A DNA stretch of 64,000 nucleotides from Escherichia coli. GTDB lineage: Bacteria; Pseudomonadota; Gammaproteobacteria; Enterobacterales; Enterobacteriaceae. Below the pieces are notes generated by a model. That model did no database searches. It was not told the origin of the DNA and worked only from the letters and a program-made list of their open reading frames with translations. Shown in pieces: positions 26,558 through 41,601 of the stretch (positions within the stretch are counted from its first letter, which is position 1; each line of letters opens with the position of its first letter). The position numbers and the translations under genes were made by a program. The stretch lies in NCBI RefSeq assembly GCF_003019035.1, contig NZ_CP027447.1; one strand, 5' to 3'.

Positions 26558-26633
26558 GCCGATATAGCTCAGTTGGTAGAGCAGCGCATTCGTAATGCGA
26601 AGGTCGTAGGTTCGACTCCTATTATCGGCACCA
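26558..26633 (+). tRNA. thrW: tRNA-Thr (CGT anticodon)
   Basis: 76-nt sequence GCCGATATAGCTCAGTTGGTAGAGCAGCGCATTCGTAATGCGAAGGTCGTAGGTTCGACTCCTATTATCGGCACCA with cloverleaf pairing and CCA end; downstream of proA. Confidence 0.9.
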
Positions 26634-26647
26634 TTAAAATCAATAAG

Positions 26648-27811
26648 TTACACATCATTAGTACCTTCCTTATTTTTTGACTGGGACAAATTTGGGACCG
26701 ATGGGTTCAGGATCGAGTCTATTTGCCGTGCGTGTTCGGTAAGGTGATTAGGTGCAAGGTGAGCATATCGACGAACCATTTCGATAGACTCCCAGCCTCC
26801 CATTTCCTGTAACACTGACAACGGGACTCCGGCTTGAACCAGCCAACTTGCCCAGGTGTGTCTCAAGTCGTGAAATCTGAAATCATCAATACCAGCCCGT
26901 CTCAGCGCCGCTTTCCAGGCTGTGTTTGCGTCATACCGCATCTTCCTTACTGTTGGCGCTTTCGTTCCGTCTGGTTTGGTACAGCTTTCCTTGTACACAA
27001 ATACCCAACGGTGATGATTCCCGATTTGTTTTTTCAATACGCGACATGCAGTATCATTCAGCGCAACGCCAATTGCGCGGTTTGATTTACTCTCTTCCGG
27101 GTTTATCCATGCCACCCGGCGCTGCATATCTATTTGTTGCCATTCAAGGTTGATGATGTTCGAGCGTCTTAAGCCTGTTGCCAGTGCAAATTCAACAACA
27201 GACTTTAATGGCTCCGGACATTCATCAATCAGCCTTTGTGCTTCATGGGGTTCCAGCCAGCGGATCCGTTTATTCTTTGGTTGAGGCACTTTAATAATTG
27301 GTGCCTTATCCAGCATTTTCCATTCACGCTCTGCGGCTCTTAGTAGGGCCTTTATAAATGAAAGATGCGTAGCCTTCGTTGCAACGGACGCTGGTTTTGG
27401 CGTGTATTCTGGAACAGGTTTCCCTTTTTTTCTGCATGCTTCTGCCCTGAGTTTCCAGTTTTCCTCATGACGCCGGTTCGTCATTTTCTGCATTGCTGAA
27501 TAAATTTTTGATTCAGTAATGTCTCTTAGTTGCATTCCTGCGAAATGTTGAAGCCAGAATCCGATCCGGCTTTTGTCATCGTCCAGTGATTTTTTATGTG
27601 CTTTCTCTTCAAGCCACCTGACACACGCTTCCTCGAACGTTATATCAGGTATTTCACCAAGTTTGCTGACCCGCCATGCTTCGGCCTTTAGCTTGTCATG
27701 GAGTTCTGTCGCCTGCCTTTTGTCCTTTGTTCCAAGAGACTGTTTAAATCTTTTACCGTTCGGCAATGTGAAACTGGCGTACCATATTTCACCTCTGCGG
27801 AAGAGTGACAT
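26648..27811 (-). CDS. int: Tyrosine integrase (P22-like)
   Basis: 387-aa ORF closely resembling P22 Int from memory ([41 protein letters not shown]...); C-terminal catalytic motifs HDLRHTWAS and VRRYAHL. Confidence 0.9.
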
Positions 27812-28038
27812 TTTCTTTCCTCTGTTATGCCATCACCCGCGCTCACCTGGACAGTATGCAGCGGAGACTGAAGAGCCGCAATGCAGGCTTGTCGTGTTGT
27901 GAGGTAAGGAGATTTATTCTTAGTGGGATCTTTGCGTGTTGCCTGAAGACGCCCTGTGCGTATCCAGTTAATAGCAGTCGGTCTGGATATCTTGAGAAAA
28001 TGACAGGCCTCATCGAGTGTGAGGCTGTATGGCTCCAT
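27688..28038 (-). CDS. xis: Excisionase
   Basis: ORF-track 27688..28122; internal ATG at 28038 with GAGGTGA RBS; P22 Xis-like ([30 protein letters not shown]); overlaps int start. Confidence 0.7.
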
Positions 28039-28382
28039 TATTTCACCTCTTGCTGTGACATTGTTGAAAAATGGATACCAGCTCGTTGCTGCCAGACGAT
28101 CCAACCGAGAGTCATATCCCATGCCATGTATTCGTTATCGCCGTTTTTTGCTCTCCGACGATCGACTGTTTTACCGAAACGCTTTTCCATAAATAATTCA
28201 TAGGCTACGCGTTCATCTGGCTCAACTTCCAGAGATGCCAGTGCAATCCGTGCCAGTTCTAAATCATTTTCAAGCTCAGCGCGAATCTCAGCGAATGCAC
28301 TCTGTGTTAAGGCGAACTCAATGCTCTGCACTTTATTCCGTGCGCGCTCAAGCAGTGCATGGTAGTTAATTTCGGTTGTCAT
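28038..28382 (-). CDS. Hypothetical early-left protein (YfdT position)
   Basis: 114-aa ORF, translationally coupled to neighbours. Confidence 0.4.
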   Translation of the reverse strand: MTTEINYHALLERARNKVQSIEFALTQSAFAEIRAELENDLELARIALASLEVEPDERVAYELFMEKRFGKTVDRRRAKNGDNEYMAWDMTLGWIVWQQRAGIHFSTMSQQEVK

Positions 28383-29257
28383 ACCCCTACCTCTTCGAAT
28401 TCCAATTCCAATTGATCACCCCAGATTTCACATGACTCTGAACACGAACCGGTATCGAATCGCCTGGCCTGTACCATCGCCTGATACAAATTTCTGTAGT
28501 CGCTGTTGGCAGACATTCTGGCAATTCCGTCAAGCGTCAGGTGACCACGGTACATAATGTCTTTACCTGTTCTGCGATGACCATCCCTGACGTGTTTGCC
28601 TGTAACCAGCTCATTAAAAACTCGCATCAGACCTGGTTCGTCTTTACATGCAAGCCCCAGCTTTTGCGTTGACTTTTTGATGCAGAAAACACAGTTCCCG
28701 AGATGCTCCGGGATTTGCAAATCAAAAGGTTGTTTTCGCCACCACCGGATAACATCCGACTTATCAAAATCTGACAGCTCGGCAAGATACCGGACGCCCG
28801 ATTTCGGTTTCAGCCTACGGGGTTCGTCTGCACGAATACCCAGCCATGTGATGTAATTACCTCGCCCGAAATGGTTATCGCAGTATTTCGTGAAAGGGAT
28901 GAGTTTTAGCCTGTCAGTACAGAACGCGCCGCCGATGTATGGCGTGCCGTACTTTTTAACCATGTCCATAAACGGTTTAAGCACCGGCATTCGTGTCTGA
29001 ATATCCTTTGGCTCCCATTCTGTATAACCATTTGGCTGCCCAAGCTCAGGATTTATATCGACCTGTAACACAGTTAGTGGTATGTCCCAGAACTTTACAA
29101 CCTCCCGGATAAAGCGGTATGTCAGCGGATGTTCGCAACCGGTATCCATAAAGATGTAGCAGACGTTATTGCCAGCCTTTCTTTGTTCTTCCATCAGGTG
29201 AACAAGATATGCGGATGTTCTCCCGCCAGAAAAACTAACTACATGAGTTATGCACAT
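28379..29257 (-). CDS. PAPS-reductase-like PP-loop ATPase family protein (YfdS position)
   Basis: ORF-track 28379..29374; likely start at ATG 29257 (MCITHVVSFSGGRTSAYLV); SGGxxS PP-loop motif; Cys-rich C-terminus. Confidence 0.6.
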   Translation of the reverse strand: MCITHVVSFSGGRTSAYLVHLMEEQRKAGNNVCYIFMDTGCEHPLTYRFIREVVKFWDIPLTVLQVDINPELGQPNGYTEWEPKDIQTRMPVLKPFMDMVKKYGTPYIGGAFCTDRLKLIPFTKYCDNHFGRGNYITWLGIRADEPRRLKPKSGVRYLAELSDFDKSDVIRWWRKQPFDLQIPEHLGNCVFCIKKSTQKLGLACKDEPGLMRVFNELVTGKHVRDGHRRTGKDIMYRGHLTLDGIARMSANSDYRNLYQAMVQARRFDTGSCSESCEIWGDQLELEFEEVGV

Positions 29258-29784
29258 TTGCGTAATTCCGATAACTCGTTGAAGCGTTCCATAAACATCC
29301 CGTAGGCATGGCCCGGTGCCAGTGGAATAACTTTGAACATCTCTGTTGCCGGGATACCTTCCAGTACAGGCCATAAAGAGCCATCATCAAGCCCGAGATC
29401 ACGGCGTTCGGTTGCCAGCATAATGAGATCGGCATATTTCACTGGCGTGCTCATAACAGGAGGTAACCCGTATTTCTCACGGATTACTGCATCTATTTTT
29501 TCTTCCATCCGTTTATAGTCAGGAAGAAGGCGTTTCAGTGGTGCGGGGATGTCCTGGCAATACGCTTCTGTTGCATCATGCATTAACGCTTCAAAAGCAA
29601 ATTCCTGCGGCACCAGCTGGCTGCAAAGCACCGCATGTTGGGCGACACTGTAGAAGTGAGAAAGATGACCGGCAAAGCGGCAGATATTTGAAAGGGAAAC
29701 CGCGATATCGTTAATCACGATGTCGTCTTTATTTATCTTGTCATAATAAAAATGCTTCCCGGAAAAAGTTTTAATAAATGACAT
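29248..29784 (-). CDS. HD-domain phosphohydrolase (YfdR-like 5'-deoxynucleotidase)
   Basis: ORF-track 29248..29811; ATG at 29784 with GGAGAA RBS gives 178 aa; HD motif region (...LMHDATEAY...). Confidence 0.65.
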   Translation of the reverse strand: MSFIKTFSGKHFYYDKINKDDIVINDIAVSLSNICRFAGHLSHFYSVAQHAVLCSQLVPQEFAFEALMHDATEAYCQDIPAPLKRLLPDYKRMEEKIDAVIREKYGLPPVMSTPVKYADLIMLATERRDLGLDDGSLWPVLEGIPATEMFKVIPLAPGHAYGMFMERFNELSELRKCA

Positions 29785-29911
29785 TTTGTTCTCCACGTAT
29801 ATGCGCTGCACCGCGCTGAATTCTGGTAAAAAGAATCCCTCACCATCCGGCGATTATTGAGTAAATTACGTTTCCATAAATGCCCCCGCAGGGGCATTTG
29901 CAGTAATGAAA

Positions 29912-30736
29912 TCAGGCGGTGAAAGTACCAATAAAGGTTTCTACTTTGCTGTCCTTGAATTTCTCAACAAGCAGATCACGAAATTCGTTAGCCATTTCTT
30001 CCTGCACCGCCTCCAGCTGAATAATGCGCAGAACCAGTACAGGACGATCTCCAGTGATAATACTGAGGCGTAATTTAAACGGACGTTCTTTCAGACCTTC
30101 AAACGGAACGCATTTAAATTCAAATGCCACTGGCATAATGTCTTTGGTCTTCGCTTCGACAGACTCCATCAGGGAGCGTTTGCCGCTGAAGTCATTATCT
30201 TCAAAATCAGCGGTCTGGTTTGCTTCAATCGTGATTTTACGGACAGCCGCAGCCGCTTTTGTTGCCTGAATAGCGTCACCATTAGCATCAAAGCCCACAA
30301 GATAGTCGGCCCAGTCTTCAATCCATTCTGCCAGTGACTTCTGGGAGTTACGCTCGCCGTTAACAGACAACAGAGCAGAGAACGGTGCTGTCTTTTTCAG
30401 TTTGAGTGTGGCGGTGTTATCTGCGTGACCTGGTTCATCAATAGTACCCAGGTTAAGCACACTGACGGCACGCATATTATCAGCATCGATAAAGCAGCGG
30501 GTGCCTTCATCTGCAAGATCTTTAGAATAACGGGTAAAGTCATCGATGCTGGCAGTGGAAAGCGCACCACGGAAACGGAAGCGATTTAAATTAAATTTTT
30601 CCAGATCATGAATGCGGAAATTCTCAGGCAATGCCACAGCATCGGCACCAATCTTACTGATAATTTCATTAACACCCTGAGCAGAAATAAGGGCATGGAT
30701 TTGATTAATTGCGGTTGCGTCTAAGTTCTGAGACAT
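29912..30736 (-). CDS. YfdQ-like prophage protein (DUF2303-like)
   Basis: 274-aa ORF; same size and neighbourhood as CPS-53 yfdQ (recalled). Confidence 0.5.
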
Positions 30737-30801
30737 AATAAGTCCTCACTATATAAAGATATTCAGTGATGAGATAAATAATCAGTTAATTAAAAACGAT
30801 A

Positions 30802-31164
30802 TTAACGACCTGCTGCGCGGAGTTTTCCGTCAGGTTCACCGGCAAGAGTCAGTAACTGTCCCTGGTCTTCCTGCAGAATAGTCAGGCGACCACCGCGATT
30901 GACATACATCGGCGTTTCGGTGGTGTCTTCTTCGGAAATTTTCCCGCGGTTAGTCGGGCGAACATATGAGAGTTTGTGTTTGATTTTCACACGGTTCTCA
31001 TCAAATGGTTCGATTTCCAGGTTGAGTGAGACCTTACCTTTGGTTTTCGTGTTCATCACACCGGAAGCGACTTCACTGAGAACTGCGCCGATTTTGGTTT
31101 CAAATACGCCGCCGTCCAGCTCCCCGATAAATGCCTGCACATCAGTACTGCGTTCGCTAGCCAT
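30802..31164 (-). CDS. Hypothetical prophage protein (YfdP position)
   Basis: ORF-track 30802..31482; ATG at 31164 (MASERSTDV...) preceded by GAGGAG RBS gives 120 aa. Confidence 0.45.
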   Translation of the reverse strand: MASERSTDVQAFIGELDGGVFETKIGAVLSEVASGVMNTKTKGKVSLNLEIEPFDENRVKIKHKLSYVRPTNRGKISEEDTTETPMYVNRGGRLTILQEDQGQLLTLAGEPDGKLRAAGR

Positions 31165-31601
31165 TTTGCTGCTCCTCATCATATCGACCCTGCAAGGCCG
31201 ATTAGTTTCTCCACAAAACAGAGAAGAACACCTGCGGTGGCAGCCGCCCGGATGGATTGGGTTATGAGCCCGTCGTCCGGTGATGCTCTTCTCTGTTTTG
31301 TAAAAAGGACGGTACCAGCCGGAAGCAAGGGTACAAGCTGGTACCGCCAGGACTACACACAGCATAAAGTTGTGGTGCCGGGTGCCTCCCGGTGCCTGGC
31401 GAAGGTTGCACACCAGGCGGGTGGGTATCCACAGAAGGTCGACTGTCAGCCTCAACCTTAACCCGCGTGCGCTGAGCCGCATTCACCACAACGCTAAGGA
31501 TTCTCTCTGGTTGAAAATACTTAGCTGTTATGTGCCTGTCTTTTCACCACTTCAGGCTCGGTGGTATCCTTTTAAGCCCGTATACATAAAAGGAAAATCA
31601 A

Positions 31602-31847
31602 ATGACTTTTGATGAAAAAGAACTTGATAATGCAATTAATAAAATCATCGTAACGTCGCTCTTTTCCTGTCTCAGCGACACTCAGCAGAAACAGTTCTAC
31701 GAATCGGCTTTCAACATGATCGAGCGTTGTTGTTTCTGCGATGCCGACGAGTTACCTGAAAAAATCAGGAAACAGTTGGCTGATGCTCTTCGAGTGCGAC
31801 TTTCTGACCAATTTTCTGAAATGTGCTCTCCGAATTTGGACAAATAG
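31602..31847 (+). CDS. Hypothetical protein
   Basis: 81-aa ORF with AAAGGA RBS; overlaps the 3' end of convergent ORF 31765..32061. Confidence 0.35.
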   Translation: MTFDEKELDNAINKIIVTSLFSCLSDTQQKQFYESAFNMIERCCFCDADELPEKIRKQLADALRVRLSDQFSEMCSPNLDK

Positions 31848-32061
31848 AAAAAGGCCATTTCCATTCAGGGTCTGATGGAAATACTTCAGCCTGTTCCAAA
31901 GCACGGCGTAAAGAGAACACAACTCCAGCCATAATCTGATGTTTCCCATTGGTCCAGCTATCGCCGCTCTGATCTACAGGGGCGGCTATGTCGTATGACC
32001 AAACGACTTCACAATTATTGTTTAAAATCTGGACTTTCATTTCATACACCTGCTTTAACAT
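31765..32061 (-). CDS. Hypothetical protein (first gene in pL direction)
   Basis: 98-aa ORF left of the immunity region on the pL strand; no clear RBS. Confidence 0.35.
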   Translation of the reverse strand: MLKQVYEMKVQILNNNCEVVWSYDIAAPVDQSGDSWTNGKHQIMAGVVFSLRRALEQAEVFPSDPEWKWPFSICPNSESTFQKIGQKVALEEHQPTVS

Positions 32062-32196
32062 GAGTGCCTAGTGGCACAACATGATTCAACGAATCATCCT
32101 GGACTTCATATGCCCCAGGCGGCTACTTCGTGGGCGTCCTGCCTGTTTGTTGTTTCTCTTGGGTACATTATGTATCTCAAAGGTACATTGTCAAGT

Positions 32197-32233: not shown

Positions 32234-32908
32234 TTAGGCTTTGATTTTGTATCTTCTTGGTTTTCCTGAGAAAATCACAGTTCCAATTATAGAGCAATTA
32301 CCGTTGATCTTAATGTAAGGCTCAGGCCAGTTTGGGTTTAACGCTTTGAGATAACGCTGTGTCCCATCTTCTATCAACCTTTTGAAGGTGGTTTCACCTG
32401 TATCGTGCATCAATGCAATAACGTCGTCACCGTGGCAGGCAGGTACTTCAGGATCGACAAAAATCATGTCTCCCGGGCGGTACTCATCAATCATTGAATC
32501 ACCTATCACCCGCAAGATATAAGTCATTTCCCCACAGGGTACAGGGCAGGGGTACGTTTCTGCTGTGCTCAAATCAACCTCAGAATATCCAACTTCTTTC
32601 CATGCTCCGGCCTGTACCCATGATATGACAGGGACTAATGTGATTTGTTTATTAGTGATTGAAACATCAGGTTTTTTTGTGATGTTCGTTGTCTGGTGTT
32701 CTTGATCGAGCCATCCGACAGGCAGGTCGAAACATTTTTCGATGTGTCGTGCCATGCTGTCACCGATATTTTTAGTAGCACCATCTCCCATAAACCTGCT
32801 GGTCTGGGTTGGCTCGCGATCAATCATAGTGGCAAAGGAAGAATTCCCGCCAACACCATCTCTCAGTTTTCTGGCGTTAGACCGCCGGATGTCATGGATT
32901 GTTTTCAT
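32234..32908 (-). CDS. cI: CI-like prophage repressor (HTH plus S24 LexA-like peptidase domain)
   Basis: 224-aa ORF; N-terminal HTH; C-terminal S24 signature (VIGDSM ... GDMIFVDP); divergent from cro-like gene. Confidence 0.85.
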   Translation of the reverse strand: MKTIHDIRRSNARKLRDGVGGNSSFATMIDREPTQTSRFMGDGATKNIGDSMARHIEKCFDLPVGWLDQEHQTTNITKKPDVSITNKQITLVPVISWVQAGAWKEVGYSEVDLSTAETYPCPVPCGEMTYILRVIGDSMIDEYRPGDMIFVDPEVPACHGDDVIALMHDTGETTFKRLIEDGTQRYLKALNPNWPEPYIKINGNCSIIGTVIFSGKPRRYKIKA

Positions 32909-38461: not shown

Positions 38462-38484
38462 GGGGGAATTACCCCCCTTTTTTT
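38462..38484 (+). terminator. Rho-independent terminator after Q, overlapping the 3' end of the convergent membrane-protein gene
   Basis: ggggg-aatta-cccccc hairpin followed by a 7-T run. Confidence 0.5.
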
Positions 38485-39017
38485 CTCTGTTGCTTTAATA
38501 AAATTTTGATATTTTGTCTGATTATGATGAGGCAATGTAATAAAAGAAATACCGTTAGTATTGCAAGCCATACGCAAAATAAGCATGCATATAAATTAGT
38601 TGAAAGTCCAATAGTGAATTGTGCAATTGCTGTTGTGATAGAACATAATATTGATGTATTAATAAATGAGGATAAATTGTCTAAAGGTTTATAAAGTACA
38701 CTATCATTGATTTTGTCAATAGGTATACCAGTGGCAATGCTATAAATTTCCTTATATTCCTGAGTTGCAAAAACCTTATCGCGTAAATTTATTATGACAA
38801 AGGTATGCAGGCTCAATAAAAATGAGCCCACGGAAATAAAACCGGAGAAGAGATAGCCTCGTAAGTTTTTATGATAAAAATCAAAAAAGTTAACACTTAC
38901 TTTAGGTGTGTTTCTGTACAATAGGTAAAGTGCAAGCAATGCCAGGATCGAGAATGCAAGCAGTGTAAGGTACTGATACCTCAATCTTTTATTTATTAGC
39001 CATTCATATAAAGGCAT
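38469..39017 (-). CDS. Unassigned 182-aa four-helix integral membrane protein (gene B of AT-rich cassette)
   Basis: ORF-track; four hydrophobic segments (approx. residues 17-35, 54-78, 119-143, 144-166); basic C-terminus (RQNIKILLKQQRKKGG); start overlaps gene A stop by 14 nt; very AT-rich codon usage. Confidence 0.6.
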   Translation of the reverse strand: MPLYEWLINKRLRYQYLTLLAFSILALLALYLLYRNTPKVSVNFFDFYHKNLRGYLFSGFISVGSFLLSLHTFVIINLRDKVFATQEYKEIYSIATGIPIDKINDSVLYKPLDNLSSFINTSILCSITTAIAQFTIGLSTNLYACLFCVWLAILTVFLLLHCLIIIRQNIKILLKQQRKKGG

Positions 39018-39930
39018 TTTTATTCGTCCCGTTCAGCATTTCTTCTTTTATCATATCAAAAACAGGGTTTGTTGTATAATTATCGTTTGTCAATCCATTG
39101 ACTTTATCGGCAATTATATCGAAATCGTATGTTTCAAAAAAAACAGGGCAGTTCATAAAATCAATGGTTTTTTCTATTCCTGCATGGTTTACTGCAATAA
39201 CCTGTGCTTTAGTAACTCCACTCATAGAATTATAAATATTTGAAAGATTCTGAGATAGTTGTTGCACTTTTGTTCTGTCGCTAGAATTAAAATTCATATC
39301 TATTGTGGTGGTGTTAACAAATTGTTCAAGCGCAGTCATTGGTCCACCTTTAAAATCTATATAATTAAATTTAAAGCTTGTGCTTTTAATCTCTTTGAAT
39401 TGACATAAAACACTCTGAATGTTGTTTTTATTTGTCATAAGGCTGAAAGTCAGTCTTTCTTTGTATTTTTTATTTATTGCAGTTACTTCTTTTTGTTTTG
39501 GTTTATCACCAAGTTTTTTTATTTCTTCTTTATTTTGATTTCTGATAAATTCATTACTTATTGTTTCTAAATGAGAAAAGAGAGTGTTCAGACTGCATGA
39601 ACCGTGGTGATACATATAGAGACCAGAAAGATTAGATTTTTTAATTAAGAAAAAGTTGAAATTAGCAAGTTTGTCACTTCCTTGAAGATCTTCAATTTTA
39701 AGCTGGAATTTACCATCAACAAATTGCGACTTACAGTTCTTTTTTTGGTTTCTGAATGTGACAACTAATCCATAATAGAAATCATTCACATCCGAAATGA
39801 GAATTTTACGAGTATAGTCTGTGCGACTGTGTTCTCTGTTTGATGCGTTGATAAAAGCATTCATTACGTCAACGGTATTAATATTTTTGTTATTGTTATT
39901 TATTGTAAATCCTATGCTTCTAACTTTCAT
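39004..39930 (-). CDS. Unassigned 308-aa soluble protein (gene A of AT-rich cassette)
   Basis: ORF-track; Asn/Lys-rich; no hydrophobic helices; no Walker A or nucleotidyltransferase motif seen; AT-rich. Confidence 0.6.
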   Translation of the reverse strand: MKVRSIGFTINNNNKNINTVDVMNAFINASNREHSRTDYTRKILISDVNDFYYGLVVTFRNQKKNCKSQFVDGKFQLKIEDLQGSDKLANFNFFLIKKSNLSGLYMYHHGSCSLNTLFSHLETISNEFIRNQNKEEIKKLGDKPKQKEVTAINKKYKERLTFSLMTNKNNIQSVLCQFKEIKSTSFKFNYIDFKGGPMTALEQFVNTTTIDMNFNSSDRTKVQQLSQNLSNIYNSMSGVTKAQVIAVNHAGIEKTIDFMNCPVFFETYDFDIIADKVNGLTNDNYTTNPVFDMIKEEMLNGTNKNAFI

Positions 39931-40548: not shown

Positions 40549-41601
40549 ATGAAAAATACTGTAAAAATAAACAGTGTTGATTTAATCAACGCTGATTGCC
40601 TGCATTTTATTCAGTCCCTGCCTGATGATTCCATTGACCTGATTGTTACCGATCCGCCTTACTTCAAGGTGAAACCTAACGGTTGGGACAATCAGTGGAA
40701 AGGGGACGAAGATTACCTTAAGTGGCTGGACCACTGTCTGGCCCAGTTCTGGCGGGTGTTAAAACCTGCCGGAAGCCTTTACCTGTTCTGTGGGCATCGC
40801 CTGGCATCTGATATTGAGATCATGATGCGTGAACGTTTCAACGTGCTTAACCATATCATCTGGGCGAAGCCGTCCGGACGTTGGAATGGGTGTAATAAAG
40901 AAAGTCTGCGCGCATATTTTCCTGCCACAGAGCGCGTTCTGTTTGCTGAACATTACCAGGGGCCATATCGCGGCAAAAGTGACGGCTATGCGGCAAAAGA
41001 AAGGGAACTCAAACAGCACATAATGGCACCGCTGATATCGTATTTCAGGGATGCTCGTGCCGAACTGGGTATAACGGCAAAACAAATTGCCGAAGCCACA
41101 GGTAAGAAAAATATGGTTTCCCACTGGTTTGGTGCCAGTCAGTGGCAGTTGCCGAATGAGGCTGACTATCGGAAGTTACAGGCACTGTTTTCCCGTATAG
41201 CGGCAGAGAAGTTTCAGGAACAACAACTGGAACAACCACACCACCAGCTGGTGGCATCTTATGATTCACTGAATCGCAAATATTCTGAATTGCTGGATGA
41301 GTTTAAATCTCTCCGGCGCTATTTCTCCGTATCAGTCTCCGTGCCTTATACCGATGTCTGGACGCATAAGCCCGTTCAGTTCTACCCGGGTAAACATCCG
41401 TGCGAGAAACCGGCGGATATGCTCCGGCAAATAATCAATGCCAGTAGTCGACCTGGTGATCTGGTTGCTGATTTCTTTATGGGATCCGGTTCCACAATAA
41501 AAGCAGCAATGGCGCTGGGGCGTCGGGCGTTAGGTGTTGAACTTGAGTCAGAGCGGTTTAATCAGACGGTGAAAGAGGTAAGTGAACTGGTGGGGAAATA
41601 A
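40549..41601 (+). CDS. DNA methyltransferase (N6-adenine / N4-cytosine class, DPPY motif), orphan
   Basis: 350-aa ORF; catalytic motif IVTDPPYF near N-terminus and AdoMet-binding-like C-terminus (DLVADFFMGSGST); no adjacent restriction gene recognised. Confidence 0.8.
   Translation: MKNTVKINSVDLINADCLHFIQSLPDDSIDLIVTDPPYFKVKPNGWDNQWKGDEDYLKWLDHCLAQFWRVLKPAGSLYLFCGHRLASDIEIMMRERFNVLNHIIWAKPSGRWNGCNKESLRAYFPATERVLFAEHYQGPYRGKSDGYAAKERELKQHIMAPLISYFRDARAELGITAKQIAEATGKKNMVSHWFGASQWQLPNEADYRKLQALFSRIAAEKFQEQQLEQPHHQLVASYDSLNRKYSELLDEFKSLRRYFSVSVSVPYTDVWTHKPVQFYPGKHPCEKPADMLRQIINASSRPGDLVADFFMGSGSTIKAAMALGRRALGVELESERFNQTVKEVSELVGK

Follow-up and report, generated by a model that had tools for sequence, protein, structure and literature searches.

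Does a PP-loop ATPase gene that overlaps an HD phosphohydrolase gene in an Escherichia coli prophage encode a partner of that hydrolase, or have the two been joined by recombination between phages? The question is raised by five minus-strand genes in a 64,000-nucleotide stretch of E. coli DNA (contig NZ_CP027447.1), the whole of which is called the window below. An earlier note on this DNA had likened the five genes to the yfdPQRST block of the K-12 prophage CPS-53, and had taken the PP-loop ATPase and the nucleotide phosphohydrolase as a pair that might serve nucleotide or DNA modification, or anti-defence. By sequence comparison the segment is a mosaic: a yfdP-yfdQ-yfdR trio is followed, after yfdR, by a swappable cargo slot that holds an orthologue of the phage lambda gene ninC here and yfdS in K-12. 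The best explanation overall, which we favour with modest confidence, is an early-left operon in which the trio would serve host-replication takeover and the slot carries NinC as a putative DNA-modifying enzyme, not as a partner of the HD protein.

The PP-loop gene is a displaced copy of lambda ninC

The PP-loop protein is 79.3% identical to lambda NinC over 285 of its 292 amino acids (aa), the lambda match being the gene annotated as NinC, with NinB and NinD on its two sides. It also matches phrog_424 ('PAPS reductase', for 3'-phosphoadenosine-5'-phosphosulfate) at 1.1e-90. A tblastn search of GenBank phages returned 588 records, with lambda at 79% and Stx2a-converting phages and Shigella phage Ss-VASD at 93%. 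Lambda NinC (orf290) is of the same length class and has identical PP-loop, GAFCTDRLK, GIRADEP, GNCxFC and GSCSESCE motifs. The two copies differ in place: the lambda gene is part of the rightward nin region, flanked by ninB and ninD, whereas the window gene stands between yfdR and xis in the leftward early operon, a place that the 93% identical copy of Stx2a phages also occupies. The nin-region location between the replication genes and Q does not apply to the window gene, which adjoins the xis/int side instead. The PP-loop gene is a lambda NinC orthologue in a displaced copy, and not a CPS-53 gene.

Both positions are found in other phages. In the Stx2-type phage Lys12581Vzw the NinC gene is early-left, after RecT, exo, SSB, a YfdP homologue (58%), a DUF2303 protein and an unrelated 147-aa protein, and there is no YfdR. 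Salmonella phages Oslo and SE16 resemble lambda in having the gene after ninB, and Oslo has a small DNA methyltransferase gene between ninB and ninC. The NinC family is widespread, with more than 5000 clusters at 90% identity. A copy of the NinC-like gene, 91% identical, was also seen on the 95.6-kb E. coli O55:H7 plasmid NZ_CP039843.1 (hit H54), possibly a phage-plasmid, so that the gene is not confined to integrated lambdoid prophages. A longer, 331-aa reading of the PP-loop open reading frame (ORF), with its start at 29374, was rejected: it would add 39 residues whose codons overlap yfdR in a different frame, and all homologues, like RefSeq, start at MCITHVVSFSGG (ATG at 29257), which gives 292 aa.

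A swappable slot after yfdR

BLAST homology to K-12 covers 27982–28247 (93%) and 29250–31183 (97.9% nucleotide identity), and is interrupted at 28248–29249, that is over the 5' part of the yfdT-like gene and the whole PP-loop gene. The K-12 slot has no PP-loop gene and holds yfdS, which encodes a 120-aa 'phage protein' belonging to DUF551 (PMC4776307). The proposed match to yfdPQRST of CPS-53 (KpLE1) consequently has to be divided. It is borne out for yfdP, yfdQ and yfdR (98.3, 99.3 and 98.3% amino acid identity, respectively) and for the last 81 residues of yfdT, with the same order and strand, a yfdQ-yfdR spacer that is 98–99% identical, and an excisionase gene that follows (torI in K-12); it breaks down at the PP-loop gene. 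The yfdT-like product is itself chimeric, being 82.7% identical to K-12 YfdT over its C-terminal 81 residues only, while its first 35 residues bear no relation to that protein. CPS-53, a remnant, lies beside dsdC, whereas the window prophage sits at thrW with an intact int.

Part of the block was found in 3058 of 5426 complete E. coli genomes, and 271 of these carry it, in its NinC version, at a coverage of at least 80%. K-12-type strains cover 68% of the query because yfdS replaces the PP-loop gene in them. In strain 300033, a human isolate, the entire arrangement is found at 99.1%, integrated at another site next to ybhC, which indicates that the block travels with different integration modules. 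A hybrid protein (P0021) was also observed in 20 contigs: ~230 residues at its N-terminus resemble NinC (86% identity to the window protein), and its C-terminus is a DUF551 domain of the yfdS type that replaces the CSESC tail. The hybrid shows directly that the two alternative occupants of the slot behind yfdR have recombined with each other.

NinC domains are linked to DNA adenine methyltransferases

NinC domains occur fused, in both orders, to two unrelated families of DNA N6-adenine methyltransferases. A Dam domain (PF05869) stands at the N-terminus of two proteins (P0122, P0125) and at the C-terminus of five (P0123, P0128, P0158, P0076, P0090), and a further fusion (P0130) involves the D12 class (PF02086). 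The fusions keep the PP-loop, the CSESC tail and the (N/D)PP(Y/F) methyltransferase motif, with the exception of P0158, which is without CSESC. Such long proteins make up seven of the 107 full-length representatives of 50% clusters; in six the methyltransferase domain was confirmed by Pfam, and the seventh (P0137) has the NPPF motif only. In the NinC-Dam fusions of Vibrio and other phages (for example the 'Dam methyltransferase with PAPS reductase domain' of Vibrio phage 44E38.1) the NinC domain is 50–55% identical to the window protein and all motifs are kept. The window protein differs from them in that it stands alone with no adjacent methyltransferase, the only methylase detected in the prophage (PF01555-type, 40549–41601) being 11 kb away.

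A survey of 80 IMG/VR viral loci that carry NinC relatives gave a similar picture of the neighbourhood. In five of them (L018, L022, L027, L028, L038) the NinC gene is directly preceded by a Dam gene, in six (L030–L032, L034, L060, L066) the two are fused, and one more has a Dam gene nearby. YfdR adjoins NinC in ten loci only, all of which have a NinC 94–100% identical to that of the window (E. coli). Around the distant members of the family (28–36% identity) the neighbours are PolA, ERF, YqaJ exonuclease, AAA_24, PDDEXK nuclease, dUTPase, helicases and PF01555 methylases. As far as gene context can tell, the NinC family sits consistently in DNA-metabolism modules and is linked to DNA methylases, not to HD hydrolases, and it more likely acts on DNA alongside the former than together with the latter. 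The functional pairing proposed in the earlier note finds no support in the survey, in which YfdR appears only in the near-identical E. coli group. Its suggestion of DNA modification survives for the PP-loop protein, by way of methyltransferase fusion and adjacency, and not by way of the HD gene.

Conserved residues and candidate chemistry of NinC

In an alignment of 61 NinC-family sequences, reaching down to 28% identity, the PP-loop residues S10, G11, G12 and S15 (SGGRTS, residues 10–15) and C192 are kept in at least 90% of the sequences. Invariant positions are G40 and E42 (TGxE), C113, K118, G140-x-R-x-D-E, R148, G187-N-C189, K195, C272 and C276. The assignment of the window protein to the PAPS-reductase family holds: Pfam PAPS_reduct (PF01507) matches residues 5–71 only, at 1.5e-8 and 35.3 bits against a cut-off of 22.5, and the cysteines include C113, C189/C192 and C272/C276. 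All NCBIfam matches are sub-threshold, that to the CysH equivalog NF002537 scoring 20.5 against 154 bits. The structure is predicted with confidence apart from a disordered C-terminal tail. The nearest structures are those of a [4Fe-4S] adenosine 5'-phosphosulfate (APS) reductase, CysH, NcsA, TtuA and [4Fe-4S]-LarE; the fold also matches TilS and GMP synthetase, with the PP-loop following strand 1 of a Rossmann-like fold. Three conserved cysteines are placed like the [4Fe-4S] ligands of APS reductase.

Comparison with the reductases themselves reveals two differences. Against CysH and APS reductases (PDB 2goy, 6vpu, 1sur) identity is 19–23%, and about 163 of the 292 residues can be aligned. 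ECG[LI]H is the C-terminal catalytic motif of sulfonucleotide reductases. The aligned reductase sequences lack a canonical PP-loop, whereas NinC has SGGxxS, and in NinC, whose tail in the window protein reads GSCSESCEIWG, CSESCE replaces ECG[LI]H. Since the canonical PP-loop and the CSESCE tail are unlike those of reductases, we infer that 'reductase' is a poorer description of NinC than a PP-loop adenylating enzyme equipped with an Fe-S or persulfide apparatus for handling sulfur.

The best PADLOC match of the NinC-like protein is SspD (1.3e-14), in which residues 5–152 align with positions 2–125 of a 277-position profile, i.e. the N-terminal half only; matches to DndC (5e-3) and BrxP are marginal. 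NinC has in common with these proteins of DNA phosphorothioation (SspD, DndC, BrxP) the PP-loop ATP-pyrophosphatase fold and Fe-S-type cysteines, and the length of the SspD model (277) is similar to its own. It differs from SspD and DndC in that just one half matches, and in that its gene is phage-borne and either stand-alone or fused to a methyltransferase.

Taken together with the methyltransferase link, a mechanism may be proposed. NinC would adenylate a site in DNA with ATP and transfer sulfur to it, in the manner of SspD, DndC or TtuA. The sulfur would come from a persulfide on the C-terminal cysteines, presumably supplied by the host IscS, and/or from sulfide on a three-cysteine [4Fe-4S] cluster. 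The enzyme would work beside phage DNA adenine methyltransferases in DNA modification or anti-restriction, laying down a protective mark that complements adenine methylation. The parts of this proposal do not carry equal weight. That NinC is a DNA-directed modification enzyme is a tentative assignment, to which we give a little less than even confidence. That it inserts sulfur into DNA specifically is doubtful. Equally unlikely is the proposal in its full form, a stand-alone ATP-dependent Fe-S/persulfide sulfur inserter (by phosphorothioation or base thiolation) at or next to N6-adenine methyltransferase sites, whose mark would defeat restriction or modification-sensing defences.

One solved structure touches this family. 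Chain C of PDB 21fy, 'PptA' (270 aa, in a complex), matches the NinC profile (1.6e-6) and shares GAxCTxxLK and NCxxCxK, and its PP-loop is degenerate (FSCGAPS). Literature searches on PptA (21fy) returned unrelated proteins, and a search for homologues of its sequence yielded nothing but unnamed metagenomic proteins of ~200 aa. A metagenomic relative that is 66% identical to PptA lies on phage contig L091, between an Enc34-type single-stranded-DNA-binding gene and a family A DNA polymerase (PolA) gene.

The yfdP-yfdQ-yfdR trio

The five products belong, in order from YfdP to the YfdT-like protein, to phrog_204, 210, 318, 424 and 660. YfdP matches its family at 1.2e-49, and its homologues in Klebsiella, Yersinia and Xenorhabdus match the YfdP family PF27127. 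The 274-aa product was rightly called YfdQ-like, as it matches DUF2303 (PF10065) at 2e-92 over its full length (residues 7–272 against profile positions 2–269 of 269). The HD-hydrolase assignment of the 178-aa protein is likewise upheld: YfdR matches phrog_318 ('deoxyribonucleoside 5' monophosphate phosphatase') at 2.6e-109 and the HD structure PDB 2gz4 at 5.5e-13, H50 and H69-D70 are present, and the Pfam YfbR-like/HD match (2.8e-5) scores 24.3 bits, just under the cut-off of 25.9. PADLOC hidden Markov models gave no match at E ≤ 0.01 for YfdP, YfdQ, YfdR or the YfdT-like protein, and a PDB sequence search with YfdP and the YfdT-like protein found nothing meaningful.

Klebsiella and Yersinia prophages have YfdQ homologues that are 58–60% identical, all at the same position. 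The order there is an S24 repressor gene, a gap, YfdP (PF27127), DUF2303, a YfdR homologue (65% identical in Klebsiella, 60% in Yersinia) and then variable genes. Xenorhabdus has the same arrangement, ending in a truncated yfdR remnant (53% over 96 aa). Judged from this synteny, many enterobacterial prophages share yfdP-yfdQ-yfdR as a conserved trio that comes directly after the repressor/PL region. One of the Klebsiella prophages (L088, 5687–7732) carries, downstream of yfdP-yfdQ-yfdR, a 249-aa PAPS-reductase gene of a different subfamily (SGGKDS PP-loop, CVFC). A ParB-like gene is common to this prophage and an otherwise similar one from Klebsiella (L087), and the PAPS-reductase gene, which lies downstream of the ParB-like gene, is in L088 only. 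The pairing is reminiscent of the ParB/PAPS-reductase pair IbrB/IbrA.

The trio's likeliest role may be early host-replication takeover. The earlier note regarded the function as unknown, which is too pessimistic for the HD protein: K-12 YfdR is published as binding domain I of DnaA via Phe46 (Noguchi and Katayama, PMC4776307) and is a weak 5'-deoxynucleotidase according to work cited there. It competes with DiaA and DnaB, and multicopy yfdQ and yfdR together with yfdS or yfdT suppress over-initiation and block initiation at oriC (PMC4776307).

Points that weigh against these readings

Several observations speak against NinC as a DNA-modifying enzyme and the trio as a replication inhibitor. 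The match to SspD is partial, and cysteine desulfurase, SspA/B/C and DndA/D/E were found neither in the window operon nor among the recurrent neighbour clusters of the 80 loci. The methyltransferase fusions might reflect co-selection and not a shared substrate. We know of no report of a NinC-dependent modification, or of Tris-dependent degradation, for the much-handled DNA of lambda, which argues against dense modification. The literature within reach, covering NinC, phage PAPS reductase, anti-defence and Dnd evasion, holds no experiment on any NinC-family protein. Homologues of YfdP and YfdQ occur without YfdR in Stx2 phages. Lambda NinC has been called 'poorly understood', with no interaction partners (PMC3224144), and lambda ninC is non-essential once polarity on Q is relieved (PMC10695390). 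Deletion of yfdQRST gave no replication phenotype, and the YfdR/DnaA effects came from multicopy expression (PMC4776307).

A 2024 paper states that phage PAPS-reductase homologues, that of lambda included, 'deserve further investigation' (PMC11437467). A 2026 preprint says that a phage PAPS reductase helps to evade Dnd (bioRxiv 10.64898/2026.07.27.740549). Two JSS1_004 papers were considered as the source of this statement and rejected, as they concern a kinase.

Alternative readings

The trio could instead serve the phage in recombination or repair: rather than inhibiting host replication, yfdP-yfdQ(-yfdR) would form a novel system for single-strand annealing or DNA-end binding. Its position is the one taken by red, erf or recT in lambdoid phages, and no recognised recombinase lies between int and cI in the window prophage. 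PDB entry 9o7m ('YfdQ Protein') holds 36 copies of a DUF2303 protein about 40% identical to the window YfdQ, while chains A and B are a different entity; this points to a large oligomeric assembly, possibly one bound to nucleic acid. Mutants deleted for yfdQ are weakly sensitive to methyl methanesulfonate (work cited in PMC4776307). With the published DnaA binding of YfdR on the other side, we consider a recombination module unlikely and keep host-replication takeover as the preferred role of the trio.

It is less likely again that the NinC-like protein modifies RNA, for example by tRNA thiolation in the manner of TtcA, TtuA or NcsA, and so tunes translation or defeats anticodon-nuclease defences. 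TtuA and NcsA are among its nearest structures. Against this, the methyltransferases to which the family is repeatedly fused or adjacent act on DNA, not on RNA, and represent three Pfam families; the family is set in DNA replication and recombination modules; and a domain search found no RNA-binding domain (THUMP, PUA).

A single nucleotide- or DNA-modification or anti-defence pathway, in which the PP-loop enzyme and the HD phosphohydrolase act jointly, has very little probability left. The two genes overlap and are co-transcribed, both families handle nucleotides, and the arrangement recurs in the 271 complete E. coli genomes mentioned above. But the relatives in lambda, in Stx2, Salmonella and Vibrio phages and in metagenomes lack the neighbouring YfdR, YfdR stays after YfdQ in K-12, Klebsiella and Yersinia with no NinC gene adjoining, and the yfdR/PP-loop junction is a homology breakpoint. 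Because the adjacency is limited to near-identical E. coli prophages, it is best taken as a mosaic joint and not as a functional pair.

The weakest alternative, a genuine APS/PAPS reductase that makes sulfite as the product of an auxiliary metabolic gene, can appeal to the Pfam match above cut-off, to the closest solved structures and to the GxRxDE Arg-loop and C-x-x-L-K motifs, but is most improbable given the score far under the CysH equivalog cut-off, the canonical SGGRTS PP-loop and replaced C-terminal motif, the cysH that E. coli already has, and the DNA-enzyme fusions and contexts that sulfate assimilation leaves unexplained.

Prophage setting and operon layout

In the window proB-proA is followed by tRNA-Thr(CGU) and immediately by a lambdoid prophage of the SfV/CPS-53 type, inserted at this tRNA gene (thrW) beside proBA (Table 1).

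Table 1 Features of the prophage left end (window coordinates)
Feature	Position	Strand	Remarks
Attachment-site tRNA-Thr	26558–26633	+	
int, tyrosine integrase	26648–27811	-	387 aa; adjoins tRNA-Thr
xis, excisionase	27688–28038	-	116 aa; phrog_2907 at 1.1e-50; HTH_17
yfdT-like	28038–28382	-	114 aa; phrog_660; chimeric
PP-loop gene, lambda NinC orthologue	28379–29257	-	292 aa; PAPS-reductase family, ATP pyrophosphatase fold
yfdR orthologue	29248–29784	-	178 aa; HD-domain 5'-deoxynucleotidase / DnaA-binding protein
9-bp GC-rich stem-loop	29878–29899	-	yfdQ-yfdR spacer; AAAUGCCCC-UGCG-GGGGCAUUU; no U-tract
yfdQ orthologue	29912–30736	-	274 aa; DUF2303
yfdP orthologue	30802–31164	-	120 aa; GAGGAG ribosome-binding site
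Candidate leftward early promoter	32194–32167	-	TTGACA-16-CATAAT (11/12); just downstream of repressor gene and hairpin; promoter/terminator scan
cI-like S24 repressor gene	32234–32908	-	terminator-like hairpin after gene

All five genes described in the earlier note are ORFs on the minus strand within 28038–31164, and their early-left position downstream of the repressor was correctly recognised. Translational coupling of all five does not hold. From the repressor side the order is yfdP, a 65-nucleotide (nt) spacer, yfdQ, a 127-nt spacer, yfdR, the PP-loop gene, the yfdT-like gene, xis and int, and overlaps are restricted to the four genes from yfdR to xis. The overlap is 10 nt between yfdR and the PP-loop gene (ATGTGCATAA), 4 nt between the PP-loop gene and the yfdT-like gene (ATGA), and 1 nt between the latter and xis (TAATG), whose start lies on the yfdT-like stop. 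Since a repressor gene, then a terminator-like hairpin and a near-consensus leftward promoter (assigned by consensus match alone) precede them, the five genes appear to be the promoter-distal part of an early-left (PL-type) operon. The yfdQ-yfdR spacer has a stable RNA fold (minimum free energy -39.2 kcal/mol, z = -2.5). An intrinsic terminator at this point was ruled out: the hairpin is strong, but it has no U-tract and the terminator scan did not call it.

Other features were observed in the same prophage. A full-length match to STnc100, an Rfam small RNA, lies at 31299–31522 (minus strand), within the yfdP leader, downstream of the candidate PL promoter; its 42.4 bits (E 1e-6) fall just short of the gathering score of 47. 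A mechanical 226-aa ORF that extends yfdP overlaps it with its upstream part, which suggests that this stretch is structured RNA rather than coding sequence. Between the repressor/PL region and this leader, a variable insert (31565–32087) breaks the homology to the strain 300033 prophage, which is otherwise 98–99% identical. In the window the insert holds an 81-aa ORF (31602–31847, plus strand) and a 98-aa ORF (31765–32061, minus strand); strain 300033 has an 'ECs1072 family' gene at this position.

In the late-regulatory region a very AT-rich (30.6% GC) two-gene insert lies on the opposite strand (38469–39930, minus). Its products, of 308 aa and of 182 aa with hydrophobic segments, were both without a PADLOC match. 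The insert seems moron-like and is a possible unrecognised defence or exclusion cassette. The methylase gene at 40549–41601 (plus strand), just upstream of the lysis genes, encodes a 350-aa DNA methyltransferase with a DPPY motif (PADLOC MTase_II, 1.6e-152). In viral locus L030 a methylase 83% identical to it lies 2.3 kb downstream of a fusion of NinC with a D12 methyltransferase.

Significance

Every component of this locus is already annotated in RefSeq, and sequenced E. coli with exactly this arrangement number in the hundreds. Three of its genes are known from K-12, where some of their biology has been published, and another is known from lambda. The comparison corrects the annotation: the PP-loop gene is a displaced lambda ninC that is not tied to the HD hydrolase. 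For yfdPQR, the published DnaA binding and the conserved place at the start of the early-left operon suggest a phage strategy for shutting down host initiation. The methyltransferase fusions, which involve two unrelated families in both orders and keep both catalytic signatures in the six cases confirmed by Pfam, turn the function of NinC into a hypothesis that can be tested with lambda genetics. If NinC were indeed a DNA sulfur-inserting enzyme, a lambda gene left without explanation ever since the genome sequence was obtained would gain a function, and a modification would come to light in the model lambdoid phages.

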